A stretch of 32,488 nucleotides of DNA. Origin: a virus. Lineage: Duplodnaviria > Heunggongvirae > Uroviricota > Caudoviricetes. The notes under the pieces are model-generated. The model saw only the letters and a list, made by a program, of their open reading frames with translations. It made no database searches and had not been told where the DNA came from. Each line of letters starts with the position of its first letter. Positions within the stretch are counted from its first letter, which is position 1. The stretch is from the IMG/VR virus record IMGVR_UViG_2778261354_000015. One strand, written 5' to 3'. The translations under genes were made by a program, and so were the position numbers. Below, in pieces: positions 8,049 to 32,488 of the stretch.

Positions 8049-8053
8049 GATGT

Positions 8054-13020: not shown

Positions 13021-13023
13021 CCG

Positions 13024-13761: not shown

Positions 13762-13860
13762 CAACCGAATGCGCCCCGCGCCAGGGCGGCACGCCGGTCA
13801 GTGAGGGTGAATCACCTGACACTGCACCGGCGTCCACCGCCCGACTTTTCAGAGGTAGTC

Positions 13861-14573: not shown

Positions 14574-14576
14574 CGC

Positions 14577-15355: not shown

Positions 15356-15369
15356 ACGGAGTAAACACC

Positions 15370-15795
15370 ATGAAGAAATTATCCCTTTCACTGATGCTGA
15401 ACGTGTCGCTGGCGCTGATGCTGGCACTGTCCCTGATTTACCCGCAGAGCGTGGCCGTCAATTTTGTCGCTGCCTGGGCGATTCTGGCGACGGTTATCTG
15501 TGTGGTTGCCGGTGGTGTCGGCGTGTATGCCACTGAGTATGTACTTGAACGCTACGGGCGGGAGCTGCCGCCGGAATCGCTGGCCGTGAAGATTGTCGCA
15601 TCGCTGTTTTTGCAGCCGGTGCCGTGGCGCAGACGGGCAGTGGCTCTGGTGGTGATGGTGACGACGTTTATCTCGCTGGTCGCTGCCGGGTGGATTTTTA
15701 CCGCGCTGATTTATCTCGTGGCGTCGCTGTTCTTCCGGCTGATACGTACGGCCTGCCGTCAGCGTTTTGAGGGGCGGGAACCATGTCAAAGCTGA
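15370..15795 (+). CDS. lysA: Lysis timing protein LysA (membrane protein)
   Basis: 141 aa, several hydrophobic helices. P2 LysA position. Confidence 0.88.
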   Translation: MKKLSLSLMLNVSLALMLALSLIYPQSVAVNFVAAWAILATVICVVAGGVGVYATEYVLERYGRELPPESLAVKIVASLFLQPVPWRRRAVALVVMVTTFISLVAAGWIFTALIYLVASLFFRLIRTACRQRFEGREPCQS

Positions 15796-16208
15796 TGACT
15801 GTGCTGGTCGTGTTGTTATCGCTGGCGGTGGCTGGTCTGTTTCTGGTGAAACATAAAAATGCCAGCCTGCGCACCTCGCTGGACAGGGCGAACAACGTCG
15901 CCAGTGAACAGCAGACGACCATCACCATGCTGAAAAACCAGCTTCATGTTGCACTCACCAGGGCAGACAAAAACGAGCTGGCGCAGGTGGCACTGCGTCA
16001 GGAACTGGAGAACGCCGCGAAGCGTGAAGCACAGCGCGAGAAAACCATCACGAGGTTACTCAATGAAAACGAAGATTTTCGCCGCTGGTATGGCGCTGAC
16101 CTGCCTGATGCTGTGCGCCGGTTGCACCAGCGTCCGGCCTGCACTGACGCCAGTGATTGTCCCCAACGCCTGCCCGAAAGTGAGCCTTTGCCTGATGCCG
16201 GGCAGTGA
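15783..16208 (+). CDS. lysB: LysB (Rz-like i-spanin)
   Basis: 141 aa with an N-terminal transmembrane segment and coiled-coil. P2 LysB. Confidence 0.9.
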   Translation: MSKLMTVLVVLLSLAVAGLFLVKHKNASLRTSLDRANNVASEQQTTITMLKNQLHVALTRADKNELAQVALRQELENAAKREAQREKTITRLLNENEDFRRWYGADLPDAVRRLHQRPACTDASDCPQRLPESEPLPDAGQ

Positions 16209-16353
16209 CCCGCAGACGAACGGCGATTTAAGTGCCGATATCCGGCAGCTTGAGAACGCGCTGGCACGCTGTGCCAGCCAGGTAAAAATGATTAAACACT
16301 GTCAGGACGAAAACGATGCTCAAACCCGACAGCCTGCGCAGGGCACTGACTGA
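16063..16353 (+). CDS. lysC: LysC (Rz1-like o-spanin lipoprotein), out of frame inside and beyond lysB
   Basis: 96 aa starting MKTKIFAAGMALTCLMLCAGC, with lipobox LCAGC. It sits in a different frame overlapping the 3' part of lysB, as in P2. Confidence 0.8.
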   Translation: MKTKIFAAGMALTCLMLCAGCTSVRPALTPVIVPNACPKVSLCLMPGSDPQTNGDLSADIRQLENALARCASQVKMIKHCQDENDAQTRQPAQGTD

Positions 16354-16783
16354 TGCCGTCACGGTGCTGAAAACCAGCCCCGAGATGCTGCGGATATTCG
16401 TGGATAACGGGAGTATTGCCTCCACACTGGCGACGTCGCTGTCATTCGAAAAGCGTTACACGCTCAATGTCATTGTGACCGATTTTACCGGTGATTTTGA
16501 CCTGCTCATCGTGCCGGTGCTGGCGTGGCTGCGGGAAAATCAGCCCGACATCATGACCACCGACGAAGGCCAGAAAAAGGGCTTCACGTTTTATGCAGAC
16601 ATCAACAATGACAGCAGCTTTGATATCAGTATCAGCCTGATGCTGACCGAGCGCACGCTGGTCAGTGAGGTGGACGGCGCGCTGCATGTGAAGAATATCC
16701 CGGAACCCCCGCCGCCGGAGCCGGTCACCCGCCCGATGGAGCTTTATATCAATGGCGAACTGGTGAGCAAGTGGGATGAATGA
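16316..16783 (+). CDS. R: Tail completion protein R
   Basis: 155 aa, matches P2 gpR. Confidence 0.92.
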   Translation: MLKPDSLRRALTDAVTVLKTSPEMLRIFVDNGSIASTLATSLSFEKRYTLNVIVTDFTGDFDLLIVPVLAWLRENQPDIMTTDEGQKKGFTFYADINNDSSFDISISLMLTERTLVSEVDGALHVKNIPEPPPPEPVTRPMELYINGELVSKWDE

Positions 16784-17228
16784 GTTTAAGCGTTTTGAAG
16801 ACCGGCTGACCGGACTGATTGAGTCGCTGTCACCGTCAGGGCGTCGGCGACTGAGTGCAGAACTGGCGAAACGTCTGCGGCAGAGTCAGCAGCGCCGGGT
16901 GATGGCACAGAAAGCCCCGGACGGCACACCCTACGCGCCACGCCAGCAGCAGAGCGCCAGAAAAAAGACCGGTCGTGTTAAGCGAAAAATGTTTGCGAAA
17001 CTTATCACCAGTCGTTTTTTGCATATCCGCGCCAGCCCGGAACAGGCATCAATGGAATTTTACGGCGGGAAGTCGCCGAAAATCGCCAGTGTGCATCAGT
17101 TCGGTCTGTCGGAAGAAACCCGGAAAGACGGTAAGAAAATTGATTATCCGGCGCGTCCTCTGCTCGGCTTTACCGGTGAGGATGTGCAGATGATTGAAGA
17201 GATTATCCTGGCTCACCTCGACCGTTAG
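16776..17228 (+). CDS. S: Tail completion protein S
   Basis: 150 aa, matches P2 gpS. Confidence 0.92.
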   Translation: MNEFKRFEDRLTGLIESLSPSGRRRLSAELAKRLRQSQQRRVMAQKAPDGTPYAPRQQQSARKKTGRVKRKMFAKLITSRFLHIRASPEQASMEFYGGKSPKIASVHQFGLSEETRKDGKKIDYPARPLLGFTGEDVQMIEEIILAHLDR

Positions 17229-17294
17229 TTGTGCCATTCCCGACACCTCATCGTCACATTGCCGCCGGTATGACCCGGCGGCATCCTTCCCGTT

Positions 17295-17930
17295 ATGAAC
17301 ACTCTCGCAAATATTCAGGAAATCGCGCGCGCACTGCGCAACATGATCCGCACCGGCCTTGTCGTCGAAACCGACCTTAACGCCGGTCGCTGCCGTGTGC
17401 AGACCGGCGGCATGTGCACTGACTGGCTTCAGTGGCTGACCCATCGTGCCGGTCGTTCGCGCACATGGTGGGCACCTTCCGTGGGGGAGCAGGTGCTGAT
17501 TCTGGCCGTGGGCGGTGAACTCGACACGGCGTTCGTTCTGCCGGGGATTTATTCCGGCGATAACCCCGCGCCGTCTGCGTCGGCGGATGCCCTGCATATC
17601 CGTTTCCCTGACGGGGCGGTGATTGAATATGAACCTGAAACCAGTGCACTCACGGTAAGCGGAATTAAAACAGCCAGCGTGACGGCTTCTGATTCTGTTA
17701 CTGCCACGGTGCCGGTGGTCATGGTGAAAGCATCAACCCGCGTCACCCTGGACACACCGGAGGTGGTCTGCACCAACAGGCTGATTACCGGCACGCTGGA
17801 AGTGCAGAAGGGCGGGACGATGCGCGGCAACATTGAACACACCGGCGGTGAACTCTCATCAAACGGTAAGGTACTGCATACCCATAAACACCCCGGCGAC
17901 AGCGGCGGCACAACCGGGAGCCCTCTATGA
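17295..17930 (+). CDS. V: Baseplate spike protein
   Basis: 211 aa, matches P2 gpV. First gene of the VWJIHG operon. Confidence 0.93.
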   Translation: MNTLANIQEIARALRNMIRTGLVVETDLNAGRCRVQTGGMCTDWLQWLTHRAGRSRTWWAPSVGEQVLILAVGGELDTAFVLPGIYSGDNPAPSASADALHIRFPDGAVIEYEPETSALTVSGIKTASVTASDSVTATVPVVMVKASTRVTLDTPEVVCTNRLITGTLEVQKGGTMRGNIEHTGGELSSNGKVLHTHKHPGDSGGTTGSPL

Positions 17931-18274
17931 CAGCGCGTTATCTCGGAATGAATCGCAGTGATGGCCTGACGGTCACTGACCTTGAGCATATCAGCCAGAG
18001 TATCGGCGATATCCTGCGCACACCGGTCGGCTCACGGGTGATGCGTCGTGATTACGGCTCGTTGCTGGCGTCAATGATTGACCAGCCGCAGACCCCGGCA
18101 CTTGAGTTGCAGATTAAGGTCGCCTGTTACATGGCGGTGCTGAAATGGGAACCCCGCGTCACCCTGTCATCCGTCACTACGGCGCGCAGCTTTGACGGGC
18201 GAATGACAGTTACGTTAACCGGCCAGCACAACGACACCGGCCAGCCACTTTCGTTAACCATCCCTGTGAGTTGA
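17927..18274 (+). CDS. W: Baseplate wedge protein (gp25-like)
   Basis: 115 aa, matches P2 gpW. Confidence 0.93.
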   Translation: MTARYLGMNRSDGLTVTDLEHISQSIGDILRTPVGSRVMRRDYGSLLASMIDQPQTPALELQIKVACYMAVLKWEPRVTLSSVTTARSFDGRMTVTLTGQHNDTGQPLSLTIPVS

Positions 18275-18278
18275 AACC

Positions 18279-19187
18279 ATGCCGATTATCGACCTGAACC
18301 AGCTACCCGCACCGGATGTGGTCGAGGAGCTGGACTTTGAAACCATTCTCGCTGAACGCAAGGCGACACTGATTTCCCTTTACCCGGAAGACCAGCAGGA
18401 GGCGGTCGCCCGTACCCTGACGCTGGAATCTGAGCCTCTCGTCAAACTGCTGGAGGAAAATGCTTATCGTGAGCTTATCTGGCGTCAGCGTGTGAATGAG
18501 GCCGCACGGGCGGTGATGCTGGCCTGTGCCGCCGGTAATGACCTTGATGTGATTGGTGCCAATTACAACACCACGCGCCTGATTATCACCCCGGAAGATG
18601 ATTCGACCATTCCGCCGACACCGGCAGTGATGGAATCTGACACCGATTATCGTCTGCGTATTCAGCAGGCGTTTGAAGGTTTAAGCGTCGCCGGGTCGGT
18701 GGGTGCCTATCAGTATCATGGCCGCAGTGCCGACGGGCGTGTTGCGGATATCTCTGTCACCAGTCCGTCTCCGGCCTGTGTCACCATCTCTGTGCTGTCA
18801 CGTGAAAATAACGGTGTGGCATCCGAAGACCTGCTGGCCGTGGTGCGTAACGCCCTTAATGGCGAGGACGTCAGGCCGGTGGCCGACCGCGTGACCGTGC
18901 AGTCTGCCGACATCGTTGAATACCAGATAAACGCCACGCTGTATCTTTACCCTGGTCCCGAAAGCGAACCCATTCGCGCTGCCGCCGTGAAAAAACTGGA
19001 AGCGTATATCACGGCACAGCACCGGCTGGGGCGCGACATCCGTCTGTCTGCCATTTATGCCGCTTTGCATGTGGAAGGCGTGCAGCGTGTCGAACTGGCT
19101 GCACCGCTGGCCGACATCGTGCTCAACAATACGCAGGCGTCTTTCTGTACCGAATACAGCGTCGTGACCGGAGGCTCGGATGAGTGA
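18279..19187 (+). CDS. J: Baseplate protein J
   Basis: 302 aa, matches P2 gpJ. Confidence 0.93.
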   Translation: MPIIDLNQLPAPDVVEELDFETILAERKATLISLYPEDQQEAVARTLTLESEPLVKLLEENAYRELIWRQRVNEAARAVMLACAAGNDLDVIGANYNTTRLIITPEDDSTIPPTPAVMESDTDYRLRIQQAFEGLSVAGSVGAYQYHGRSADGRVADISVTSPSPACVTISVLSRENNGVASEDLLAVVRNALNGEDVRPVADRVTVQSADIVEYQINATLYLYPGPESEPIRAAAVKKLEAYITAQHRLGRDIRLSAIYAALHVEGVQRVELAAPLADIVLNNTQASFCTEYSVVTGGSDE

Positions 19188-19710
19188 TTCGCGACTGCTG
19201 CCGACCGGCTCATCACCGCTTGAAGTTGCTGCCGCAAAAGCCTGTGCGGAAATTGAAAAAACGCCGGTCAGGATTCGTGAGCTGTGGAACCCGGACACCT
19301 GCCCGGTAAATTTGCTGCCGTGGCTGGCGTGGGCGTTTTCGGTCGACAGGTGGGATGAAAAGTGGCCGGAAGCGACAAAACGCGCCGTTATCCGCGATGC
19401 CTATTTCATCCACTGTCATAAGGGCACTATAGGTGCAATCCGGCGTGTGGTGGAGCCGCTCGGCTATCTCATCAACGTGACGGAGTGGTGGGAAAACAGT
19501 GACCCGCCCGGCACCTTCCGGCTTGATATTGGTGTACTGGAAAGCGGTATCACAGAGGCAATGTATCAGGAAATGGAACGGCTGATTGCTGATGCCAAAC
19601 CTGCAAGCCGCCACCTTATTGGTCTGAACATTACCCGGGACATTCCCGGCTACCTGTTCGTCGGTGGTGTGGCTTATGACGGCGATGTAATTACGGTTTA
19701 CCCCGGATAA
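19180..19710 (+). CDS. I: Baseplate protein I
   Basis: 176 aa, matches P2 gpI. Confidence 0.93.
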   Translation: MSDSRLLPTGSSPLEVAAAKACAEIEKTPVRIRELWNPDTCPVNLLPWLAWAFSVDRWDEKWPEATKRAVIRDAYFIHCHKGTIGAIRRVVEPLGYLINVTEWWENSDPPGTFRLDIGVLESGITEAMYQEMERLIADAKPASRHLIGLNITRDIPGYLFVGGVAYDGDVITVYPG

Positions 19711-19720
19711 GTGAGGAATA

Positions 19721-21838
19721 ATGAGCACAAAATTCAGAACCGTTATCACCACTGCCGGTGCAGCAAAGCTGGCAGCGGCAACCGCGCCGGGAGGGCGGAA
19801 GGTCAACATTACCACGATGGCCGTCGGGGATGGCGGTGGTAAATTGCCTGTCCCGGATGCCGGACAGACCGGGCTTATCCACGAAGTCTGGCGACATGCG
19901 CTGAACAAAATCAGCCAGGACAAACGAAACAGTAATTATATTATCGCAGAGCTGGTTATTCCGCCGGAGGTGGGCGGTTTCTGGATGCGTGAGCTTGGCC
20001 TGTACGATGATGCTGGAACGTTAATTGCCGTGGCGAACATGGCCGAAAGTTATAAGCCAGCTCTTGCCGAAGGCTCAGGGCGTTCGCAGACCTGTCGCAT
20101 GGTCATCATCGTCAGCAGTGTGGCCTCAGTGGCGCTGACCATTGACACCACAACGGTGATGGCGACGCAGGATTACGTTGATGACAAAATTGCAGAGCAT
20201 GAACAGTCACGACGTCACCCGGACGCCTCGCTGACCGCAAAAGGTTTTACTCAGTTAAGCAATGCGACCAACAGCACGTCTGAAACACTGGCCGCAACGC
20301 CGAAAGCGGTTAAGGCCGCCTATGACCTGGCTAACGGGAAATACACTGCGCAGGATGCCACCACAGCGCGAAAAGGCCTTGTCCAGCTCAGTAGCGCCAC
20401 CAACAGCACGTCTGAAACGCTCGCCGCAACACCAAAAGCGGTAAAGGCAGCATATGACCTTGCTAACGGGAAATACACTGCACAGGACGCCACCACAGCG
20501 CGAAAAGGTCTTGTCCAGCTCAGTAGCGCCACCAACAGTGATTCTGAAACGCTGGCTGCAACACCAAAAGCGGTGAAGTCTGCCTATGACAATGCTGAAA
20601 AACGTCTTCAGAAAGATCAGAACGGTGCGGATATTCCTGATAAAGGACGCTTCCTGAGTAACATTAATGTTTACAGCAAAGGTGAAGTGGATAAGAAAAA
20701 GGGAATGCGAAAGTATTCGTTTGCAGCCCCTGCAAATGTCGTTGCCGGGAAGTGGTATCCCGTTATCTTTCGCCGTGCTGCCAGCCTTTCAGGAGAAATG
20801 GCATCCCGCGTCGTTATTTCCACTGGTTGTTATAACAGCGATTATGTAATGAATAACTGCGAGTTTAATGGCATGGTTATGCCCGGAGGCTGGACTGATC
20901 GTGGTTCATATGCGGCAGGTTATTTCTGGACGTATCAGACTAATGAGCGTTCAATTCATTCCATTGTTACAAGCCTGAAAGATGATGATGTATGTAGTGT
21001 TTTTTATGTTGAAGCCAGAGCTTTCCCTGTACAAATTCTTGCAGAGGAAGGGCTAACGGTTATTGTTCCGACAGAGGATTATGTCGTCGGTCAGACGACA
21101 TATAAGTGGGGGGCAACTAATCCCGCTACAGAAAGCACGAACGCGCAGGCTATTCTGGATTTTAAAAATGGGCGCGGTTATTACTGCTCACATCCATTTA
21201 TTTCCAGCCTTTCAGGAAATGCTGCAACAGCAACAAAGTTAGCGAACGCAAGAAATATTAATGGTGTCAGATTTGATGGCTCTGCCGATATAAATATTAA
21301 TACACTGGTTTCCAGAAACCGTGTTACTGCATTAGGTGGGAGCGTAAAGGGGACACCAGGTATTCAGATGTATGAGGCATACAACAATGGCTACCCAACA
21401 GCCTATGGTAATGTGCTTCATCTCACTGGTGTAACCGCAGTAGGAGAGGGTGAGTTACTTATTGGCTGGAGTGGAACCAGCGGTGCTCATGCTCCGGCAT
21501 ATATTCGCTCCCGACGAGATACCACAGATGCTAACTGGTCTGGATGGGCGCAACTATATACAACTGCTCATAAACCCTCAGCGGGAGATGTTGGTGCATA
21601 CACCAAAGCTGAGTCAGATTCACGTTATGTGAGAGACATGCGGCTGGGCGGTGCATCTACATATAAACCAGCAAATAATGGTATTACATGGACGCATCAG
21701 GCTCCGTCAGGTTGCGTATATACCGGCATTATTGTTCAGGATACCGGCTCAAACTCTGCCGATAACATTGGTGGCGTATATTACAGACCGGTGCAGAAAT
21801 ACATTAACGGGACATGGTATAACGTGGCGCAGGTATAA
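19721..21838 (+). CDS. H: Tail fiber protein (705 aa) with conserved N-terminus, internal fiber repeats and a divergent, lower-GC distal region
   Basis: N-terminal about 170 aa match P2 gpH. Three tandem copies of a roughly 43-aa fiber repeat follow. The distal part, from about 20640, looks AT-richer and differs from what I remember of P2 H. Confidence 0.9.
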   Translation: MSTKFRTVITTAGAAKLAAATAPGGRKVNITTMAVGDGGGKLPVPDAGQTGLIHEVWRHALNKISQDKRNSNYIIAELVIPPEVGGFWMRELGLYDDAGTLIAVANMAESYKPALAEGSGRSQTCRMVIIVSSVASVALTIDTTTVMATQDYVDDKIAEHEQSRRHPDASLTAKGFTQLSNATNSTSETLAATPKAVKAAYDLANGKYTAQDATTARKGLVQLSSATNSTSETLAATPKAVKAAYDLANGKYTAQDATTARKGLVQLSSATNSDSETLAATPKAVKSAYDNAEKRLQKDQNGADIPDKGRFLSNINVYSKGEVDKKKGMRKYSFAAPANVVAGKWYPVIFRRAASLSGEMASRVVISTGCYNSDYVMNNCEFNGMVMPGGWTDRGSYAAGYFWTYQTNERSIHSIVTSLKDDDVCSVFYVEARAFPVQILAEEGLTVIVPTEDYVVGQTTYKWGATNPATESTNAQAILDFKNGRGYYCSHPFISSLSGNAATATKLANARNINGVRFDGSADININTLVSRNRVTALGGSVKGTPGIQMYEAYNNGYPTAYGNVLHLTGVTAVGEGELLIGWSGTSGAHAPAYIRSRRDTTDANWSGWAQLYTTAHKPSAGDVGAYTKAESDSRYVRDMRLGGASTYKPANNGITWTHQAPSGCVYTGIIVQDTGSNSADNIGGVYYRPVQKYINGTWYNVAQV
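20240..20593 (+). repeat. Tandem 129-bp repeat (about 2.7 copies) inside tail fiber gene H
   Basis: Units start near 20240, 20372 and 20501. Each encodes K/GxxQLSxATNSTSETLAATPKAVKAAYDLANGKYTAQDATTAR, and the third copy is truncated and diverged. Confidence 0.85.
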
Positions 21839-21841
21839 TTT

Positions 21842-22369
21842 ATGCAGCATTTAAAAAATATTACGGCGGGTAATCCAAAAACGGTTGAACAATATCAATT
21901 GACAAAGGACTTTGATGTTGTCTGGTTTTTTTCAGAAGATGGTAAGAACTGGTACGAAGAACAAAAGTATTTTGCTGATGACACGATAAAAATAGCGTAC
22001 GACAAAGATAATATTATCCGCTATGTGGAAAAGGATGTGACAGCTATCAGACCGGATGGATTAAGTGTGGTTGAAGTGGCGGATATTACTGCTAACCGAC
22101 GGGCGGACATTTCAGGGAACTGGATGTTTAAGGATGGCAAAGTGATTAAACGCATTTATACGGCAGAGGAATTGCAGCAGCAGGCAGAAAACCGGAAAGC
22201 TAGACTTCTTGCAGATGCTGAATCCGTGATTTTGCCGCTGGAGCGCGCTGTCAGGTTGAACATGGCAACAGAGGAGGAGCGCACACGGCTGGAGGCTTGG
22301 GAACGCTACAGCGTTGTGGTCAGTCGTGTGGATCCTGCAAATCCTGAATGGCCGGAAATGCCGCAATAA
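21842..22369 (+). CDS. G: Tail fiber assembly chaperone
   Basis: 175 aa, matches P2 gpG. Immediately downstream of H. Confidence 0.92.
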
Positions 22370-22555
22370 GTTGTATGAACTCTGGTGTGAGCTTACATAT
22401 CTATGGCACAGAGTAAAGCCTAATCTGACAGTCCGCTCTGTGCCAGGAGCGGAAGTTGCCAAGAGAACTCTTGCAAAGGTATGATAACGTAGGTGCTAAA
22501 TAATCATGAACCATAATAAATTAAAGGTTTTTAAGTTAACTCTATGGCGTTTCTT

Positions 22556-22584
22556 TTGCATGATGATTTTTTATTTATTATATA
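22556..22584 (+). promoter_or_regulatory. Candidate sigma70 promoter of the cargo 2 operon
   Basis: -35 TTGCAT (22556..22561), 17-bp AT-rich spacer, -10 TATATA (22579..22584). RBS agagga at 22639..22644, 6 nt before the ATG at 22651. Confidence 0.5.
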
Positions 22585-22650
22585 AAGCTTAAATATACAT
22601 AATATTTAGCTTCATTTTTTTAGGTATTTTAAAGATTTAGAGGAATGTGA

Positions 22651-23586
22651 ATGGCTACTTATGCTTCTTATTTACCAGAATCACAAATTATCACTTTGTG
22701 CAAGGATTTCCCAGCGTTTACTGATCCTGAAAAATTAGATGGATTCATTAATCCAGAACAGTTTGGCGTGTTTTTTCATGAGTGGATTCATTTTCTTCAC
22801 AATATTTCCACAATTAATGGGTTTTCTATTTTTTGCACGCAAAACATCCTGTGGTCTAATTTTCGCTGGGCAATGGACAATCAGGATGTATGTCTTGGTT
22901 CAAATGACATGGATCCAGCACATATCGAATCAAACAAAAATTTTCTCAGTTACATTCGTTCCAATAGGAGTCTGCATAAATGTAACTTACCTTATTATGT
23001 AAAAGTAAACGACTTGTATTTTGAGGATGCAATAATCCATGACATGGAGGTTGCTGACGGTAGTGTTACATGTACATCATTAATAAAGTGTAGAATTTCT
23101 CATTCTGAAAACAAATACGATCTAGATTTAGGCGTGCTTGAAATACTTGAATCCGCAGCTTTTATGCTTGAATGTAAGTGTATTAATGCGATGAATGGCT
23201 TCCCTCAAGAGGCACCCTTTTATCCGTATCATACTATCAAAGGCTTAGCAGCGAAAATTGCTCCGTCATTAAATGATGAAGATATTATTTGTTGTATGTT
23301 AGCTTCTTTGCAATCTAATAACCCTCCCCAAGTATTATTCAATCTACTACATAAATGTGAATTATTACATTCTGATTGTAGGTATGAACATCTAGTGGCG
23401 GAGGTGAAAAAACAATTAAGCGAACAAGATCAAATAATAAGCGAGTCACTTAATCAAATAATTCAAATGATTCCTGTTGATGAACCGATGGGAAACTTTA
23501 TCAAGCTTACTCTTAACAGAATAAGTAACAATTTGAACTATAGAAAGCAAAAACCGTTTTTTGAGTTAGATATAATAAAAAAATAG
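22651..23586 (+). CDS. Uncharacterised cargo protein (311 aa) with HExxH motif; candidate defence component A
   Basis: Long ORF in an AT-rich island with a strong RBS. HEWIH at residues 43..47 (22777..22791) sits in a hydrophobic context like zincin metallopeptidase active sites. No similarity to any P2 backbone protein that I recognise. Confidence 0.6.
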   Translation: MATYASYLPESQIITLCKDFPAFTDPEKLDGFINPEQFGVFFHEWIHFLHNISTINGFSIFCTQNILWSNFRWAMDNQDVCLGSNDMDPAHIESNKNFLSYIRSNRSLHKCNLPYYVKVNDLYFEDAIIHDMEVADGSVTCTSLIKCRISHSENKYDLDLGVLEILESAAFMLECKCINAMNGFPQEAPFYPYHTIKGLAAKIAPSLNDEDIICCMLASLQSNNPPQVLFNLLHKCELLHSDCRYEHLVAEVKKQLSEQDQIISESLNQIIQMIPVDEPMGNFIKLTLNRISNNLNYRKQKPFFELDIIKK

Positions 23587-23603
23587 CAGAAAAAACTGAG
23601 TTT

Positions 23604-23993
23604 ATGAATGAAGTAATACAGAAATTCGGTGGTTGCACTATCATCCAGGTAAGACATGGAGATGATAATGAACCACAGCGTGATATTATGTATGACTTTT
23701 GCTTACCTGAAAATAATGATTCAATTTTATTTGGTTCGAAAATGCTACGCGCTTGTTTTCACTTTATATTTATTCACTTTAAACTTTCTGGTGAAATCAT
23801 GAAGACAGAAGAATTAAATATTTCGCCGCGTAATAAATGCCCATTTTATACTGTTTGCTGTGCATCAATTCGAGCTAATAATAGTAATATCTGCGCTGAA
23901 TCCCCTTGGAAATCAATGTCTATTGATGACAACAAAGGTTGTTATTATGCAGCAGCGATTAAAGCTACTAACCCACCAGTTTTGCCGGATTAA
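23604..23993 (+). CDS. Small cysteine-rich cargo protein (129 aa); candidate defence component B
   Basis: ORF 17 nt downstream of the previous gene on the same strand. Eight Cys residues, including a CC pair. The RBS is weak, so the start is uncertain. Same AT-rich island. Confidence 0.45.
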   Translation: MNEVIQKFGGCTIIQVRHGDDNEPQRDIMYDFCLPENNDSILFGSKMLRACFHFIFIHFKLSGEIMKTEELNISPRNKCPFYTVCCASIRANNSNICAESPWKSMSIDDNKGCYYAAAIKATNPPVLPD

Positions 23994-24127
23994 GAATAGT
24001 GTTCTTTCTGATAAATATAAAATATTTAAGGTCAGGTCTGCTTATCGCTCAAAGCAGACTGTCAGATTTGATAACGTTTGGGCTATGTAAACCGTCAGTT
24101 GGAAAATGAGTGAGTGCAAGTCAGGAC

Positions 24128-24155
24128 AGGCGGGCGGATTGCCCGCCTTTTCTTT
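24128..24155 (+). terminator. Rho-independent terminator closing the cargo 2 operon
   Basis: Stem aggcgggc (24128..24135), loop ggatt, stem gcccgcct (24141..24148), followed by ttttcttt. Confidence 0.75.
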
Positions 24156-24251
24156 ATCTGTTGTTTCATCCACTGACCAGCCAGGTCAAATAGCGCCTCA
24201 TGCTCTGCACAACAGAAAATAGTTGCACCCATTAACCACGGAGTTAAACGG

Positions 24252-25442
24252 ATGAGTGACTATCATCACGGCGTGCAGGTGCTGGAGATTAACGACGGCA
24301 CACGCGTCATTTCCACCGTATCCACTGCCATTGTCGGCATGGTCTGCACGGCCAGCGATGCGGATGCGGAAACCTTCCCCCTCAATAAACCTGTGCTGAT
24401 TACCAATGTGCAGAGTGCAATTGCAAAGGCCGGTAAAAAAGGCACGCTGGCGGCATCGTTGCAGGCCATCGCTGACCAGTCAAAACCGGTCACCGTTGTC
24501 GTGCGCGTGGAAGACGGCACCGGTGATGACGAGGAAACGAAACTCGCGCAGACCGTTTCCAATATTATCGGCACCACTGACGAAAACGGTCAGTACACCG
24601 GACTGAAAGCCCTGCTGGCGGCGGAGTCGGTAACCGGTGTTAAACCGCGTATTCTTGGTGTGCCGGGGCTGGATACCAAAGAGGTGGCTGTTGCACTGGC
24701 ATCAGTCTGTCAGAAGCTGCGCGCTTTCGGATATATCAGCGCATGGGGCTGTAAGACCATTTCCGAGGTGAAAGCCTACCGCCAGAATTTCAGCCAGCGT
24801 GAGCTGATGGTCATCTGGCCGGATTTCCTCGCATGGGATACGGTCACCAGTACCACCGCCACCGCGCATGCCACCGCCCGTGCGCTGGGTCTGCGCGCTA
24901 AAATCGACCAGGAGCAGGGCTGGCATAAAACGCTGTCCAACGTTGGGGTAAACGGTGTTACCGGCATCAGCGCATCTGTATTCTGGGATTTGCAGGAGTC
25001 CGGCACCGATGCTGACCTGCTTAACGAGTCAGGCGTCACTACGCTGATTCGCCGTGACGGTTTCCGCTTCTGGGGTAACCGTACCTGCTCTGATGACCCG
25101 CTGTTCCTCTTTGAAAACTACACCCGCACCGCGCAGGTGCTGGCCGACACGATGGCTGAGGCGCACATGTGGGCGGTGGACAAGCCCATCACCGCAACGC
25201 TGATTCGCGACATCGTTGACGGCATCAATGCCAAATTCCGTGAGCTGAAAACAAACGGCTATATCGTGGATGCGACCTGCTGGTTCAGCGAAGAATCCAA
25301 CGATGCGGAAACCCTCAAGGCCGGAAAACTGTATATCGACTACGACTATACCCCGGTGCCTCCTCTCGAAAACCTGACCCTGCGCCAGCGTATTACCGAT
25401 AAATACCTGGCAAATCTGGTCACCTCGGTTAACAGCAATTAA
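24252..25442 (+). CDS. FI: Tail sheath protein
   Basis: 396 aa, matches P2 gpFI. Confidence 0.95.
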   Translation: MSDYHHGVQVLEINDGTRVISTVSTAIVGMVCTASDADAETFPLNKPVLITNVQSAIAKAGKKGTLAASLQAIADQSKPVTVVVRVEDGTGDDEETKLAQTVSNIIGTTDENGQYTGLKALLAAESVTGVKPRILGVPGLDTKEVAVALASVCQKLRAFGYISAWGCKTISEVKAYRQNFSQRELMVIWPDFLAWDTVTSTTATAHATARALGLRAKIDQEQGWHKTLSNVGVNGVTGISASVFWDLQESGTDADLLNESGVTTLIRRDGFRFWGNRTCSDDPLFLFENYTRTAQVLADTMAEAHMWAVDKPITATLIRDIVDGINAKFRELKTNGYIVDATCWFSEESNDAETLKAGKLYIDYDYTPVPPLENLTLRQRITDKYLANLVTSVNSN

Positions 25443-25454
25443 GGAGCCTGACCG

Positions 25455-25973
25455 ATGGCAATGCCGCGCAAACTCAAGTTAATGAACGTCTTTCTGAACG
25501 GCTACAGCTATCAGGGCGTTGCAAAGTCCGTCACGCTGCCAAAACTGACCCGTAAGCTCGAAAACTATCGCGGTGCGGGGATGAACGGCAGCGCACCGGT
25601 AGACCTCGGCCTTGATGACGATGCACTGTCAATGGAGTGGTCGCTCGGGGGCTTCCCGGATTCGGTTATCTGGGAGCTTTACGCCGCAACCGGTGTGGAT
25701 GCTGTGCCGATTCGTTTTGCAGGCTCTTACCAGCGCGACGATACCGGCGAAACGGTGGCCGTCGAGGTGGTCATGCGTGGACGTCAGAAAGAAATCGACA
25801 CCGGCGAGGGGAAACAGGGAGAAGACACCGAGTCGAAAATCTCCGTGGTCTGCACCTATTTCCGGCTGACGATGGACGGTAAGGAGCTGGTCGAAATCGA
25901 CACCATCAACATGATTGAGAAGGTGAACGGCGTCGACCGGCTGGAGCAACACCGCCGCAATATCGGCCTGTGA
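25455..25973 (+). CDS. FII: Tail tube protein
   Basis: 172 aa, matches P2 gpFII. Confidence 0.95.
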   Translation: MAMPRKLKLMNVFLNGYSYQGVAKSVTLPKLTRKLENYRGAGMNGSAPVDLGLDDDALSMEWSLGGFPDSVIWELYAATGVDAVPIRFAGSYQRDDTGETVAVEVVMRGRQKEIDTGEGKQGEDTESKISVVCTYFRLTMDGKELVEIDTINMIEKVNGVDRLEQHRRNIGL

Positions 25974-26029
25974 TTTTCATCCGGTCAGCCAGGCTGACCG
26001 GTTACCCCCTATTCAGAAGTGAGAAAACC

Positions 26030-26305
26030 ATGAACAAAGAAAATGTCATTACCCTGGACAATCCGGTCAAACGTGGTGAGCAGGTTATCGAACAGGTCAC
26101 GCTGATGAAACCTAACGCCGGGACGCTGCGCGGTGTCAGTCTGGCTGCGGTTGCAAACTCCGAAGTCGATGCACTGATTAAAGTGCTGCCGCGCATGACG
26201 GCACCGATGCTGACCGAGCAGGAAGTCGCCGCGCTGGAACTGCCTGACCTTGTGGCGCTGGCCGGTAAGGTGGTCGGTTTTTTGTCGCCGAACTCGGTGC
26301 AGTGA
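26030..26305 (+). CDS. E: Tail assembly chaperone E
   Basis: 91 aa from MNKENVITLDNP, matching P2 gpE. The ORF-track start at 25970 is an over-extension. Confidence 0.9.
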   Translation: MNKENVITLDNPVKRGEQVIEQVTLMKPNAGTLRGVSLAAVANSEVDALIKVLPRMTAPMLTEQEVAALELPDLVALAGKVVGFLSPNSVQ

Positions 26306-26457
26306 CGTTCCCGAAAAATCTCTCGGTCGATGACCTGATGGCGGATGTGGCAGTGATATTTCACTGGCCGCCATCAGAACTGTATCCCATGAGCCTGACC
26401 GAACTCATCACATGGCGCGAAAAGGCGCTCCGGCGAAGCGGAAACACGAATGAGTAA
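26030..26457 (+). CDS. Tail assembly chaperone E+E' (programmed -1 frameshift product)
   Basis: Slippery run T TTT TTG at 26278..26284 near the 3' end of E. The -1 frame stays open for 59 codons (FFVAELGAVTFPKNLSVDDLMADVAVIFHWPPSELYPMSLTELITWREKALRRSGNTNE) to a TAA at 26455..26457, overlapping the T start. This is the conserved arrangement in P2-like and lambda-like tail chaperones. Confidence 0.8.
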
Positions 26458-28897
26458 CAATGTAAAATTACAGGTATTGCTCAGGGCTGTTGACCAGGCA
26501 TCCCGCCCGTTTAAATCCATCCGTACAGCGAGTAAGTCGCTGTCGGGGGATATCCGGGAAACACAAAAATCACTGCGCGAGCTGAACGGTCACGCATCCC
26601 GTATTGAGGGATTCCGCAAGACCAGTGCACAGCTCGCCGTGACTGGTCATGCACTTGAAAAGGCACGGCAGGAAGCCGAAGCCCTTGCCACACAGTTTAA
26701 AAACACCGAACGTCCGACCCGTGCTCAGGCGAAAGTGCTGGAATCAGCAAAGCGAGCGGCGGAAGACTTACAGGCGAAATATAACCGCCTGACGGATTCC
26801 GTTAAACGCCAGCAGCGGGAACTGGCCGCTGTGGGAATTAATACCCGCAATCTTGCACATGATGAGCAGGGGCTGAAAAACCGTATCAGTGAAACCACCG
26901 CACAGCTTAACCGTCAGCGCGACGCACTGGCGCGTGTCAGTGCACAACAGGCAAAACTTAACGCAGTCAAACAGCGTTATCAGGCCGGAAAAGAACTGGC
27001 AGGAAATATGGCCTCAGTGGGCGCTGCCGGTGTGGGGATTGCTGCTGCGGGAACGATGGCCGGAGTTAAGCTGCTGATGCCCGGTTATGAGTTTGCGCAG
27101 AAAAACTCAGAATTGCAGGCTGTGCTCGGTGTGGCAAAAGACTCCGCCGAAATGGCTGCACTACGCAAGCAGGCGCGCCAGCTCGGTGACAATACCGCCG
27201 CCTCAGCGGATGATGCGGCCGGTGCGCAGATTATCATTGCGAAAGCGGGTGGAGATGTTGATGCCATTCAGGCGGCAACGCCGGTCACGCTGAACATGGC
27301 GCTGGCGAACCGTCGCACGATGGAAGAAAACGCCGCCCTGCTGATGGGGATGAAATCTGCCTTTCAGCTTTCAAACGATAAGGTCGCTCATATCGGGGAT
27401 GTTCTCTCCATGACGATGAACAAAACCGCCGCTGATTTTGACGGCATGAGCGATGCGCTGACCTATGCCGCACCAGTGGCAAAAAATGCCGGTGTCAGCA
27501 TTGAAGAAACTGCCGCAATGGTCGGGGCGCTGCATGATGCAAAAATCACAGGCTCAATGGCGGGGACGGGAAGCCGTGCCGTGTTAAGTCGCCTGCAGGC
27601 ACCGACTGGAAAAGCATGGGATGCACTCAAAGAGCTTGGCGTGAAAACCTCAGACAGTAAGGGAAACACCCGACCAGTATTTACCATTCTGAAAGAAATG
27701 CAGGCCAGCTTTGAGAAAAACCGGCTCGGTACTGCCCAGCAGGCCGAATACATGAAAACCATTTTCGGGGAGGAGGCCAGCTCAGCCGCCGCTGTGCTGA
27801 TGACTGCCGCGTCAACCGGAAAGCTGGACAAACTGACCGCTGCGTTTAAAGCCTCAGACGGGAAGACCGCAGAGCTGGTAAATATCATGCAGGACAACCT
27901 CGGCGGTGACTTTAAGGAGTTTCAGTCCGCTTATGAGGCGGTGGGGACAGACCTGTTTGACCAGCAGGAAGGCGCACTGCGTAAGCTCACGCAGACGGCC
28001 ACAAAGTATGTGTTAAAACTCGACGGCTGGATCCAGAAAAACAAATCACTGGCGTCAACCATCGGCCTCATTGTCGGTGGTGCACTGGCGCTGACTGCTG
28101 TCATCGGTGCCATTGGCCTCGTAGCCTGGCCGGTTATCACTGGCATCAATGCCATCATCGCGGCAGCAGGCGCAATGGGGGCAATCTTCACGACGGTTGG
28201 CAGTGCTGTTATGACGGCCATCGGGGCGATTAGCTGGCCGGTTGTGGCCGTGGTGGCCGCCATTGTCGCCGGGGCGTTACTTATCCATAAATACTGGGAG
28301 CCTGTCAGCGCATTCTTTGGCGGTGTGGTGGAAGGGCTGAAAGCGGCATTTGCGCCGGTGGGAGAACTGTTCACGCCACTGAAGCCGGTGTTTGACTGGC
28401 TGGGCGAAAAGTTACAGGCCGCGTGGCAGTGGTTTAAAAACCTGATTGCCCCGGTCAAAGCCACACAGGACACCCTGAACCGTTGCCGTGACACGGGCGT
28501 CATGTTCGGGCAGGCACTGGCTGACGCGCTGATGCTGCCGCTTAATGCGTTCAACAAACTGCGCAACGGTATTGACTGGGTACTGGAAAAACTCGGTGTT
28601 ATCAACAAAGAGTCAGACACACTTGACCAGACCGCAGCCAGAACTCATGCCGCCACGTATGGCACCGGTGGTTATATTCCGGCGACCAGCTCTTATGCAG
28701 GCTATCAGGCTTATCAGCCGGTTACGGCACCGGCTGGCCGCTCTTATGTGGACCAGAGTAAAAACGAATATCACATCAACCTGACGGGCGGTACTGCGCC
28801 GGGAACACAGCCTGACCGCCAGTTACAGGATGCGCTCGAAAAATACGAGCGGGATAAACGTGCGCGCGCCCGTGCCAGCATGATGCATGACGGTTAA
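26450..28897 (+). CDS. T: Tail tape measure protein
   Basis: 815 aa with coiled-coil N-terminus and Gly/Ala-rich hydrophobic segments. P2 gpT position and length. Confidence 0.95.
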   Translation: MSNNVKLQVLLRAVDQASRPFKSIRTASKSLSGDIRETQKSLRELNGHASRIEGFRKTSAQLAVTGHALEKARQEAEALATQFKNTERPTRAQAKVLESAKRAAEDLQAKYNRLTDSVKRQQRELAAVGINTRNLAHDEQGLKNRISETTAQLNRQRDALARVSAQQAKLNAVKQRYQAGKELAGNMASVGAAGVGIAAAGTMAGVKLLMPGYEFAQKNSELQAVLGVAKDSAEMAALRKQARQLGDNTAASADDAAGAQIIIAKAGGDVDAIQAATPVTLNMALANRRTMEENAALLMGMKSAFQLSNDKVAHIGDVLSMTMNKTAADFDGMSDALTYAAPVAKNAGVSIEETAAMVGALHDAKITGSMAGTGSRAVLSRLQAPTGKAWDALKELGVKTSDSKGNTRPVFTILKEMQASFEKNRLGTAQQAEYMKTIFGEEASSAAAVLMTAASTGKLDKLTAAFKASDGKTAELVNIMQDNLGGDFKEFQSAYEAVGTDLFDQQEGALRKLTQTATKYVLKLDGWIQKNKSLASTIGLIVGGALALTAVIGAIGLVAWPVITGINAIIAAAGAMGAIFTTVGSAVMTAIGAISWPVVAVVAAIVAGALLIHKYWEPVSAFFGGVVEGLKAAFAPVGELFTPLKPVFDWLGEKLQAAWQWFKNLIAPVKATQDTLNRCRDTGVMFGQALADALMLPLNAFNKLRNGIDWVLEKLGVINKESDTLDQTAARTHAATYGTGGYIPATSSYAGYQAYQPVTAPAGRSYVDQSKNEYHINLTGGTAPGTQPDRQLQDALEKYERDKRARARASMMHDG

Positions 28898-28911
28898 GGA
28901 GGTGACGAAAA

Positions 28912-29391
28912 ATGATGCTCGCGTTAGGTATGTTTGTTTTTATGCGCCAGACGCTGCCACACCAGACCATGCAGCGTGAATCAGATTATCGCTGGCCGTC
29001 AAATTCCCGTATCGGTAAACGGGATGCCTTTCAGTTTCTCGGTGTGGGTGAGGAAAACATGACGCTTGCCGGTGTGCTTTATCCCGAACTGACCGGCGGC
29101 AAGCTGACGATGACCACGCTCAGACTGATGGCAGAGGAAGGCCGGGCGTGGCCGTTGCTGGATGGCACCGGCATGATTTACGGCATGTATGTCATCAGCA
29201 GGGTGAGTGAAACAGGGAGTATTTTCTTTGCAGACGGCACACCCCGGAAAATTGATTTTACGCTGTCGCTCACCCGCGTTGATGAATCACTGGCCGCGCT
29301 TTATGGCGATATCGGTAAACAGGCGGAATCGCTCATCGGTAAGGCTGGCAGTATGGCGACCAGATTCACGGGTATGACGGGGGCGGGATAA
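28912..29391 (+). CDS. U: Tail protein U
   Basis: 159 aa, matches P2 gpU. Confidence 0.93.
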   Translation: MMLALGMFVFMRQTLPHQTMQRESDYRWPSNSRIGKRDAFQFLGVGEENMTLAGVLYPELTGGKLTMTTLRLMAEEGRAWPLLDGTGMIYGMYVISRVSETGSIFFADGTPRKIDFTLSLTRVDESLAALYGDIGKQAESLIGKAGSMATRFTGMTGAG

Positions 29392-30554
29392 TGCTGGATG
29401 CGCTGACATTTGATGCAGGCAGTACGCTGACGCCGGATTACATGCTGATGCTCGACAGCAGGGATATTACCGGCAATATCAGTGACCGTCTGATGAGCAT
29501 GACCCTGACGGATAACCGGGGCTTTGAGGCTGACCAGCTTGATATTGAACTGAACGATGCCGACGGGCAGGTCGGGCTGCCGGTTCGTGGCGCTGTCCTG
29601 ACGGTGTATATCGGCTGGAAAGGTTTTGCCCTGGTATGCAAAGGGAAATTTACCGTTGATGAGGTTGAACACCGGGGCGCACCGGATGTGGTCACCATCC
29701 GCGCCCGGAGTGCAGATTTCCGCGGGACGCTCAATTCCCGCCGGGAAGGCTCCTGGCATGACACCACGCTCGGTGCGATTGTTGAGGCGATAGCCTCCCG
29801 TAACAGGCTGGAGGCCAGTGTCGCTCCGTCACTGGCCGGAATTAAAATCCCGCACATCGACCAGTCGCAGGAGTCTGATGCGAAATTCCTGACCCGTCTT
29901 GCAGAACGCAACGGCGGTGAGGTGTCGGTAAAAATGGGAAAACTGTTGTTTCTCAAAGCGGGGCAGGGGGTGACGGCCAGCGGTAAAAAAATCCCGCAGG
30001 TCACCATCACCCGCAGCGACGGCGACCGTCATCATTTTGCGATTGCTGACCGTGGAGCCTATACCGGCGTTACGGCAAAGTGGTTACACACCAAAGACCC
30101 GAAGCCGCAAAAGCAGAAGGTAAAACTGAAACGCAAAAAGAAAGAGAAACACCTGCGCGCACTGGAGCACCCGAAAGCGAAACCGGTCACGCAGAAGAAA
30201 GAGCCAAAAGTACCGGAAGCGCGCGAAGGTGAATACATGGCCGGTGAGGCTGACAACGTTTTTGCCCTGACCACGGTATATGCCACGAAAGCACAGGCCA
30301 TGCGCGCCGCTCAGGCGAAGTGGGATAAACTGCAACGGGGTGTTGCGGAGTTCTCCATCAGCCTGGCTACTGGTCGGGCAGATATTTACACGGAAACACC
30401 GGTTAAAGTGTCAGGCTTTAAGCGCGTCATAGACGAGCAGGACTGGACCATCACTAAGGTGACACATTGTCTCAATAATAGCGGCTTCACGACGTCCTTG
30501 GAGCTTGAGGTAAGGCTTTCTGATGTGGAGTACGAAACAGAAGATGATGAGTGA
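29391..30554 (+). CDS. D: Tail protein D (baseplate hub / late control D)
   Basis: 387 aa, matches P2 gpD. Confidence 0.93.
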   Translation: MLDALTFDAGSTLTPDYMLMLDSRDITGNISDRLMSMTLTDNRGFEADQLDIELNDADGQVGLPVRGAVLTVYIGWKGFALVCKGKFTVDEVEHRGAPDVVTIRARSADFRGTLNSRREGSWHDTTLGAIVEAIASRNRLEASVAPSLAGIKIPHIDQSQESDAKFLTRLAERNGGEVSVKMGKLLFLKAGQGVTASGKKIPQVTITRSDGDRHHFAIADRGAYTGVTAKWLHTKDPKPQKQKVKLKRKKKEKHLRALEHPKAKPVTQKKEPKVPEAREGEYMAGEADNVFALTTVYATKAQAMRAAQAKWDKLQRGVAEFSISLATGRADIYTETPVKVSGFKRVIDEQDWTITKVTHCLNNSGFTTSLELEVRLSDVEYETEDDE

Positions 30555-30635
30555 TGCGGTTTATTTATCTATTTGTTTTATAAGGGTAAATTAACTAAAA
30601 TGGCACTATCAACAAAACCGGAAGAGGTGCTCGCG

Positions 30636-30854
30636 ATGTTTCATTGTCCTTTATGCCAGCATGCCGCACATGCGCGTACAAGTCGCTATATCACTGACAC
30701 GACAAAAGAGCGTTATCACCAGTGCCAGAACGTGAATTGCAGCGCCACGTTCATCACTTATGAGTCGGTACAGCGATACATCGTAAAGCCGGGAGAAGTC
30801 CACGCCGTAAGGCCGCACCCGTTACCGTCAGGGCAGCAAATTATGTGGATGTAA
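30636..30854 (+). CDS. ogr: Late gene transcriptional activator Ogr (C4 zinc finger, 72 aa)
   Basis: Starts MFHCPLCQHAAHARTSRYI with CxxC ... C..NC cysteines, matching P2 Ogr. The ORF-track start at 30573 is an over-extension. Confidence 0.92.
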   Translation: MFHCPLCQHAAHARTSRYITDTTKERYHQCQNVNCSATFITYESVQRYIVKPGEVHAVRPHPLPSGQQIMWM

Positions 30855-30866
30855 TTACAAACAGAA

Positions 30867-30891
30867 AGCCCCTCAGTCGAGGGGCTTTTTT
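30867..30891 (+). terminator. Rho-independent terminator downstream of ogr
   Basis: Stem agcccctc (30867..30874), loop agtc, stem gaggggct (30879..30886), followed by tttttt. Confidence 0.8.
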
Positions 30892-30954
30892 GTCGATGTG
30901 GTCAATGTGTGGACGTGACCAGAAATAAATCCTTTTATTTCATTGAATTACGCG

Positions 30955-30982
30955 TAAAAAATAAGCCCGTGTAAGGGAGATT
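30955..30982. repeat. attR core (direct repeat copy 2)
   Basis: Identical to 488..515. Overlaps the 3' terminator region of cyaR on the minus strand. Confidence 0.85.
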
Positions 30983-31042
30983 ACACAGGCTAAGGAGGTG
31001 GTTCCTGGTACAGCTAGCATTTTATGGGTTATGTTTTTCAGC
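30956..31042 (-). ncRNA. cyaR: CyaR (RyeE) Hfq-dependent sRNA
   Basis: Minus-strand sequence gctgaaaaacataacccataaaatgctagctgtaccaggaaccacctccttagcctgtgtaatctcccttacacgggcttatttttt matches CyaR as I remember it, including the CCUCCUUA seed-like region and the terminator hairpin plus U-tail. A CRP-like site and -10 element lie upstream. Confidence 0.85.
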
Positions 31043-31076
31043 GAAACGGATGATAACCTTAATAAATGCAGCTGTA

Positions 31077-31092
31077 TGTGATCGGTTTCTAA
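31077..31092 (-). promoter_or_regulatory. Candidate CRP-binding site of the cyaR promoter
   Basis: Plus strand reads TGTGA-tcggtt-TCTAA, a near-consensus CRP dyad centred about 41 bp upstream of the cyaR 5' end. A -10-like element (TTATCA on the minus strand, plus-strand 31051..31056) also lies upstream. CyaR is known to be CRP-activated. Confidence 0.55.
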
Positions 31093-31126: not shown

Positions 31127-32488
31127 TCACTTACCGTGGGGGTTACGCGTGGTTTCCCCGGAGAAATTACGCATCAGCAGCGCGTAATTTAGCTCAAGAT
31201 CCTGCGGCACCGGGAGCCACACAGTATAACCATCGCCTGGTGCGACCGGCATTGCTTCACCTTTGGCGTTTTCCATGTGCTCAAGGGTAAAGTTAATGTT
31301 GCCTTGCGGCGTCATCAGCTCAAGGCTGTCGCCAACGGAGAATTTATTTTTCACCGCTACCGCCGCGAGCTCCCCCTTGCGCTTACCGGTAAACTCACCA
31401 ACAAACTGCTGACGGTCAGAAACCGAATAACCGTATTCGTAGTTCTGATAATCGTCGTGGGTATGACGACGCAGGAAACCTTCGGTATAGCCACGATGCG
31501 CCAGACCTTCCAGAGTTTCCAGCAGGCTGGTATCGAACGGTTTGCCCGCAGCGGCGTCATCGATAGCTTTACGGTAAACCTGCGCGGTGCGTGCGCAATA
31601 GTAGAAAGATTTGGTACGGCCTTCGATTTTCAGCGAATGCACGCCCATTTTGGTCAGGCGTTCAACATGGGCGATGGCGCGCAGATCTTTCGAGTTCATG
31701 ATGTAAGTGCCGTGCTCATCTTCAAACGCGGTCATATACTCGCCCGGACGCTGGGCTTCTTCGATCATAAACACTTTGTCGGTTGGCGCGCCGATACCCA
31801 GCGTCGGCTCAACATTTTGCACCGGAATCGGCTCGTACTTGTGTACGATGTTGCCGACGTCATCTTCTTTCCCTTCCTGGACGTTATACTCCCAGCGGCA
31901 GGCGTTGGTGCAGGTGCCCTGGTTCGGGTCGCGCTTGTTGATATAGCCAGAGAGCAGGCAGCGACCGGAGTAGGCCATGCACAGCGCGCCGTGAACGAAG
32001 ATTTCGATCTCCATATCCGGTACCTGATTGCGGATCTCTGCAATCTCTTCCAGTGACAGTTCGCGAGAGAGGATCACGCGGGTTAGACCCATTTGCTGCC
32101 AGAATTTTACCGTCGCCCAGTTTACGGCGTTAGCCTGTACCGAGAGGTGGATTGGCATTTCCGGGAAGTGCTCACGCACCAGCATAATCAGCCCTGGATC
32201 GGACATAATCAGCGCATCCGGCCCCATTTCCACCACCGGTTTCAGGTCACGGATAAAGGTTTTCAGCTTGGCGTTGTGCGGTGCAATGTTGACCACGACA
32301 TAAAACTTTTTCCCCAGCGCGTGGGCTTCATTGATGCCGAGCTGAAGATTTTCGTGGTTGAATTCGTTGTTGCGCACACGCAGGGAGTAACGCGGCTGGC
32401 CCGCATAAACAGCATCTGCGCCATAAGCGAAAGCGTAACGCATATTTTTCAGCGTTCCCGCCGGGGAAAGGAGTTCCGGTTTAAACAT
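31127..32488 (-). CDS. yegQ: U32-family peptidase-like protein YegQ (RlhA), 453 aa, host gene
   Basis: Complete 453-aa ORF on the minus strand; sequence and length match E. coli YegQ from memory. Neighbour of cyaR and the P2 attachment locus in E. coli. Confidence 0.8.
   Translation of the reverse strand: MFKPELLSPAGTLKNMRYAFAYGADAVYAGQPRYSLRVRNNEFNHENLQLGINEAHALGKKFYVVVNIAPHNAKLKTFIRDLKPVVEMGPDALIMSDPGLIMLVREHFPEMPIHLSVQANAVNWATVKFWQQMGLTRVILSRELSLEEIAEIRNQVPDMEIEIFVHGALCMAYSGRCLLSGYINKRDPNQGTCTNACRWEYNVQEGKEDDVGNIVHKYEPIPVQNVEPTLGIGAPTDKVFMIEEAQRPGEYMTAFEDEHGTYIMNSKDLRAIAHVERLTKMGVHSLKIEGRTKSFYYCARTAQVYRKAIDDAAAGKPFDTSLLETLEGLAHRGYTEGFLRRHTHDDYQNYEYGYSVSDRQQFVGEFTGKRKGELAAVAVKNKFSVGDSLELMTPQGNINFTLEHMENAKGEAMPVAPGDGYTVWLPVPQDLELNYALLMRNFSGETTRNPHGK

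Follow-up and report, generated by a model that had tools for sequence, protein, structure and literature searches.

The locus analysed here raises the question of whether a prophage that ends exactly where a small RNA gene ends has integrated into that gene, and, if so, whose DNA then encodes the end of the RNA. The stretch of DNA examined, 32,488 nucleotides in length and referred to as the window, contains a complete 30.4-kb prophage of the P2 type at the classical E. coli site of P2. A first-pass annotation of the sequence had proposed that the attachment core of this prophage overlaps the 3' terminator of cyaR and that the phage thereby supplies the 3' end of the sRNA. The evidence presented below leaves very little doubt that a full-length P2-type prophage occupies its preferred E. 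coli site in the 3' end of cyaR, and that the gene is rebuilt via the phage core. Coordinates of all features are given in Table 1.

Table 1. Features of the cyaR locus, the att cores and the P2-type prophage, in window coordinates.
Feature	Position	Strand	Basis or remark
yegR, host flank, attL side	1..318	(+)	RefSeq annotation of matching genomes
Putative remnant of the P arm and IHF region of an earlier P2-like element, decayed; host DNA to the left of attL	425..486	.	
attL core copy: CyaR loop, 3' half of the stem and tail, but no 5' half	488..515	.	
P2-type (Peduovirus) prophage body	516..30954	.	30,439 bp, 52% GC
Cox-binding region (predicted)	532-605		transferred from AF063097 annotation
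int, tyrosine integrase, adjoining attL	595..1608	(-)	Pfam Int_N 1e-24, Phage_integrase 9e-22; matches P2 int
P' arm Int sites (predicted), ACTGTGGACACTGTGTGGACACT	603..629	.	transferred from AF063097 annotation
ogr, late-gene activator	30636..30854	(+)	Pfam Ogr_Delta 1e-21
ogr terminator hairpin, convergent with cyaR	30865-30888		
P arm Int sites (predicted), TCGATGTGGTCAATGTGTGGACGTGACC	30893..30920	.	transferred from AF063097 annotation
IHF site (predicted), next after P arm	30924-30957		transferred from AF063097 annotation
attR core copy	30955..30982	.	28-bp repeat of 488-515; classical 27-nt P2 core = 30956-30982
cyaR (ryeE) sRNA gene, intact	30956..31042	(-)	87/87 bases = K-12 b4438; Rfam RF00112
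CyaR intrinsic terminator hairpin, 11-bp stem and loop UCUCCC	30964..30991	(-)	terminator scan, RNA fold, covariation
cyaR -10 hexamer TATCAT	31055..31050	(-)	at -13..-8
CRP-type dyad TGTGA-N6-TCTAA of the cyaR promoter, TGTGATCGGTTTCTAA	31077..31092	.	kept in 75 loci of Enterobacteriaceae
yegQ/trhP, host flank upstream of cyaR	31127..32488	(-)	

The minus strand between 30956 and 31042 had been read as CyaR, and this proved correct. The annotated 87-nt cyaR of K-12 (b4438) aligned with 31042..30956 (-) without a single mismatch, while the Rfam family CyaR_RyeE (RF00112) matched 31044..30959 (-) with 100.7 bits (gathering score, 47; E = 3e-19). This match spanned positions 1–85 of the 85 in the model and was the sole Rfam match in the window. 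Both of the 3' hairpins typical of CyaR_RyeE were present in the minimum free energy fold; the first carries the anti-Shine-Dalgarno-like loop ACCACC, and the second is the terminator, with its loop UCUCCC and a U-tail.

The CRP-like dyad placed at the cyaR promoter was also upheld, through its conservation. The half-sites (TTAGA and TCACA) and their spacing to the start were kept in 75 Enterobacteriaceae cyaR promoters, and the centre of the dyad was located 42.5 bp upstream of the annotated cyaR +1, i.e., within 1 bp of the canonical class II position at -41.5. The CRP pattern alone, with two mismatches allowed, was not significant (20 matches in the window versus 14.8 expected); the pattern count was therefore dropped as statistical support and conservation used in its place. 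A generic sigma-70 scan identified no promoter at cyaR, a result that would be consistent with an activator-dependent promoter with a weak -35 element, and which is no argument against the identity of the gene. Expression of CyaR is CRP-dependent (PMC3333887), and CyaR showed a 21-fold enrichment in Hfq co-immunoprecipitation (PMC2515195).

The att core was recognised as a 28-bp direct repeat, TAAAAAATAAGCCCGTGTAAGGGAGATT, with exact copies at 488–515 and 30955–30982 that diverge one base further out (A at 487 versus G at 30954). No comparable pair arose in dinucleotide-shuffled versions of the window. The 27-nt attP core annotated in P2 (AF063097), AAAAAATAAGCCCGTGTAAGGGAGATT, is identical to 30956–30982 of the window, and on its outer side it ends flush with the 3' end annotated for CyaR. 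Read on the minus strand from 30991 to 30964, the terminator hairpin comprises the stem AGCCUGUGUAA, the loop UCUCCC and the stem UUACACGGGCU, followed by the tail UAUUUUUU at 30963..30956; the RNA fold had a free energy of -22.6 kcal/mol (z = -3.5). The first-pass coordinates of the core, 30955..30982, were exact, and its overlap with the loop, 3' stem half and U-tail was slightly more extensive than had been claimed: the repeat takes in the final two A's of the 5' half of the stem, then the loop, the full 3' half, the U-tail and one extra base. When the minus strand was folded across attL, the half-terminator situated there did not re-form a terminator hairpin for int.

Gene order in the prophage was P2-like (int, C and cox, then the late genes, D and ogr), and Pfam identified Phage_Cox (5e-48) and an HTH_3 repressor (C) beside int, in their expected positions. 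The first 24.5 kb of the prophage (516–25000) aligned with phages 9W and P22H4 at 97.1% identity (86% of the query) and with P2 at 96.5% (83%). Joining the two prophage ends gave a reconstructed attP of 908 bp; this was contiguous in P2 (AF063097) with 98.3% identity, and in phages 9W, P22H4 and P22H1 with 99.2%. The P2 record annotates ogr and its terminator, the P arm, an IHF site, the 27-nt attP core, Cox sites, the P' arm and int. The putative P and P' arms, present as direct repeats on both sides of the core, match that annotation in the window prophage; the published consensus of arm-type Int sites is tgTGGaCa (PMC3448106). The window prophage can probably excise.

Unoccupied strains revealed the state of the site before integration. 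In PU-1 and PK6, yegR and yegQ are neighbours and there is one copy of the core, which lies inside cyaR, so that the overlap proposed in the first-pass annotation is borne out at attB also. The first base of the window to differ from the empty site is 30954, two nucleotides past the 3' end annotated for CyaR. With identical phage and host cores here, CyaR was rebuilt base for base; the claim that cyaR is intact after integration holds for all 87 of its bases when compared with K-12, with the core overlapping the 3' end of the gene. CyaR should accordingly stay functional, with its expression unaffected. It is highly improbable that integration instead harms the terminator or 3' end of cyaR and makes the lysogen a CyaR hypomorph. 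A reporter gave a high intrinsic read-through of 41% for the CyaR terminator (PMC9765468), so that its context might matter; moreover, the core ends on its outer side in an A-run of polymorphic length, seven residues (A7) in PK6-type hosts and six (A6) in the phage, such that lysogeny trims the T-tract template of CyaR by one in A7 hosts. However, the gene in the window is identical throughout to the K-12 allele, which itself lies at a P2 attR and is the allele studied experimentally, and the first difference from the empty site falls outside the annotated gene.

The same polymorphism bears on the origin of the rebuilt 3' end. The attL and attR cores of the window are identical, and phage-derived bases are not distinguishable from the window sequence alone. 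Identical cores would equally accommodate a prophage that only abuts cyaR, exchange having taken place at the outermost edge of the core and all CyaR bases being host DNA. Against this, lysogens of A7 hosts carry the phage A6 beside cyaR and the host A7 at attL, which makes mere abutment very improbable. Two full-length, mutually independent lysogens with a PK6-type flank displayed this arrangement (L125, 588 and 32634; L126, 542 and 34261), while the naive PK6 site has A7 beside cyaR (L002, 2499 in the marker comparison). K-12 (L003) similarly has A7 at the left junction of its cryptic prophage PR-X and A6 at attR, and an exact A7 attL was present in 166 genomes. The combination of A7 at attL and A6 beside cyaR places strand exchange on the cyaR side of the A-run; therefore, the U-tail template of the lysogen is phage DNA, and this includes the K-12 allele. 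The phage-supplied 3' end that had been claimed was thus demonstrated by the marker in related lysogens and in K-12, rather than in the window itself.

More weakly, two observations suggest that the crossover is near the centre of the core (GTGTA), namely the K-12 deletion junction at GTGT(A) and one mismatch in Buttiauxella. The latter was seen in a Buttiauxella metagenome-assembled genome (L071), in which a P2-type arm immediately adjoins the terminator and the first T of GTGTAA is the position of a C·A mismatch in the stem (GGCCCGCGCAA / UUGCACGGGCC). This stem could be a chimeric terminator, derived from a phage core unlike that of the host.

Finally, the notion that the 28-bp repeat arose by chance or as a transposon target-site duplication, its overlap with cyaR being incidental, deserves practically no credence: short AT-rich repeats are common, but no shuffle matched this one, it is the annotated P2 attP core, the joined prophage ends give a contiguous P2 attP and the same junctions recur in hundreds of genomes.

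Integration within cyaR, with the phage core rebuilding the gene, would proceed as follows. The P2 tyrosine integrase, together with IHF, would recombine the 27-nt attP core with the identical chromosomal sequence, which encodes the top of the CyaR terminator stem, the loop, the 3' stem half and the U-tail. Strand exchange would occur inside the core and on the cyaR side of the A-run, at a crossover point whose exact position is inferred. After integration, the cyaR body and the 5' half of the stem would remain host DNA, while the outer core beside cyaR would be phage-derived, certainly as regards the U-tail template and probably for most of the 3' half of the stem. The host's own copy of the core would be displaced to attL, beside int. 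The first-pass interpretation is supported in this form, by the identities, coordinates and geometry of the window and by the phage origin of the tail in related lysogens.

Insertion of P2 at the cyaR terminator is real, ordinary and already known, since ryeE in E. coli has been described as 'previously known to be targeted by phages' (PMC3603311, citing Wassarman et al. 2001), and since PR-X and cyaR are annotated as overlapping in K-12. When an explicit statement of the overlap between cyaR and the P2 core was sought in the open-access literature, only the indirect one in PMC3603311 was found; P2-type integrases have been described as integrating 'between other genes', with cyaR not named (PMC3448106). 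Integrases that act at the 3' end of a tRNA or tmRNA gene (186 at tRNA-Ile, HP1 at tRNA-Leu, Fels-2 and SopE-phi at ssrA) likewise have a core that copies the 3' part of an RNA gene; there too the gene is restored by phage sequence, and the other junction retains a truncated copy (PMC3448106). At cyaR, by contrast, the integrase targets no tRNA-like fold but a Rho-independent terminator, which belongs to an Hfq-binding sRNA. The suggestion that the tRNA/tmRNA principle applies to an Hfq-dependent sRNA was therefore sound, given that the core overlaps the 3' end, the gene is intact and the 3' bases are phage-derived in related lysogens. Integration of phages and an island at an sRNA is also found at the Salmonella sdsR/ryeB-ryeA locus, although both the sRNA and the phages are different. 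The cyaR site is a textbook-like case: a temperate phage aims at a structured and conserved portion of a regulatory RNA gene, its 3' end, and brings a replacement copy; lysogeny would therefore be without cost to the host at that locus.

Occupancy of the site was estimated from its two junctions. Of 5426 complete E. coli genomes, 812 had the junction between yegR and int, with 80% or more of the query aligned, and 1168, K-12 among them, had that between ogr and cyaR. Other genomes matched only from approximately 30948–30956 onward, which is the start of the core. The cyaR terminator marks the P2 attachment site, occupied in approximately 15–21% of complete E. coli genomes, and can serve as a marker of that site in annotation. 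Presumably, this is the site called 'locI' in the older genetic literature on P2.

In the K-12 reference annotation, PR-X (ogrK and a fragment of gene D) overlaps the last 18 nt of cyaR. The P2 attB at PR-X resembles the window in its identical 27-nt core, in how it is placed with respect to cyaR, ogr and the P arm, and in the same attR sequence. However, PR-X (ogrK, yegZ) keeps only 0.63 kb, whereas the window prophage is complete at 30.4 kb and has both int and attL. The left end of PR-X is a deletion junction within the att core (L003, ~4812–4825, compared with 30340 of the window); the core continues up to GTGTA and is followed by gene D, the two being joined at a common GTGT. This deletion could have arisen through Int, or through microhomology at the crossover region.

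A scan of one genome per species across the Enterobacteriaceae returned 120 cyaR loci, of which 119 were retained after removal of one chance match; yegQ was upstream of cyaR in 117 of these. Among the 116 loci that aligned in register, the terminator loop and its closing A-U pairs (AAUCUCCCUU) were near-invariant, with one exception at each end position, while stem positions 5–9 covaried through several Watson-Crick types. An invariant loop on a covarying stem indicates that the terminator is an old structure, selected in the host; the part of it that is most conserved is the one occupied by the P2 core. In several genera, the U-tract of CyaR was directly followed by a P2-type arm (an IHF-like GAAATAAAAGGATTTATTTC, then ATGTCCACACATTGACCACATCGA). 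The carriers were two Citrobacter youngae, another Citrobacter, an Enterobacter, a Buttiauxella, Salmonella diarizonae, E. albertii and two more Enterobacteriaceae, and in three of these genomes homologues of Ogr and gpD came next after the arm. Thus, the site is a P2-family attachment site throughout the family and not in E. coli alone. One further locus was unusual in another respect: in L020 (440–2500), a record labelled Enterobacter hormaechei B56, yegQ and cyaR were 98–99% E. coli-like up to the U-tract, past which there was DNA without an E. coli match (containing two membrane-protein-like ORFs) and an Enterobacter-like yegS. This could be a recombinant bounded by the att core, or an assembly chimera.

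The host DNA to the left of attL suggests that the 'empty' site may have a phage history of its own. Comparison of 425–486 with the P arm and IHF region of the prophage gave 50 identical positions (z = 7.9 relative to shuffles), including one intact arm-type repeat, TGTGGTCA; this flank was present in 5358 of 5426 E. coli genomes, also at empty sites. A decayed core with ~50 nt of P'-side flank was detected in a second place (L001, 1533–1609, versus 487–565 of the window; z = 9.0), which was identical in PU-1, PK6 and K-12 and present in 5382 of 5426 genomes. The two relics, at 1533–1609 and 2455–2535 in L001, bound a segment of 1,003 bp that holds yegR and has a GC content of 37%, against 49–54% in the flanking genes. 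Almost every E. coli has this segment between cyaR and yegS, with an intact core and the decayed P arm towards cyaR, and the decayed core with its P' flank towards yegS. yegR was absent from the other enterobacterial cyaR loci scanned (about 115–119). Where cyaR and yegS are uninterrupted, as in Escherichia sp. E1V33 among others, yegS lies ~80 nt past the CyaR terminator; in E. coli, homology to this ancestral spacer resumes ~1 kb from cyaR, directly after the decayed core and P' flank. The E. coli order of cyaR, core, P arm, intervening DNA, P' flank, core, spacer and yegS is the geometry of an integrated P2-like element.

On balance, this comparison of sequences favours the view that the 'empty' E. 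coli site is probably the scar of an ancient P2-like prophage, since deleted almost completely. Were this so, the 3' half and U-tail of the CyaR terminator would be phage-donated in essentially every E. coli, K-12 included, and the original host copy of the core would have decayed beside yegS. Modern P2 would enter the attR of its predecessor, the old attR acting both as the CyaR terminator and as the attB of modern P2, and yegR would be a leftover of the older element. The locus would then provide a concrete case of a phage-supplied RNA 3' end that became fixed in a species. A tblastn search with yegR against phages returned two records only, both apparently prophage excerpts with host flank. 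The 3' stem has an E. coli-specific variant, UUACACGGGC, where E. albertii and E1V33 have UUACGCAGGC; at the two diagnostic positions, decay of the old attL copy has gone too far to reveal the direction of copying. The relic structure of the empty site is the only element of the present analysis that might be new.

Several other features of the prophage were recorded. Between replication gene A and the portal gene, a cargo gene (6661–7620, +) encodes a 319-aa TIR-domain protein (PADLOC 'TIR-TM', 1e-117; Pfam TIR_2), which is probably anti-phage defence cargo in a known P2 variable hotspot. Two ORFs between the tail-fibre assembly and tail sheath genes (22651–23586, 311 aa, and 23604–23993, 129 aa; both +) had no Pfam or PADLOC match, and their position is a second P2 variable region. 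Within the 705-aa tail-fibre ORF (19721–21838), a 132-nt unit was tandemly duplicated at 20239–20502, with 84% identity between the copies. At the other end of the prophage, cyaR and ogr converge (30865–30991), with their terminators ~75 bp apart. Given the 41% read-through of the CyaR terminator in a reporter (PMC9765468), CRP-driven transcription of cyaR could therefore enter the prophage as antisense and reach its P arm and ogr.
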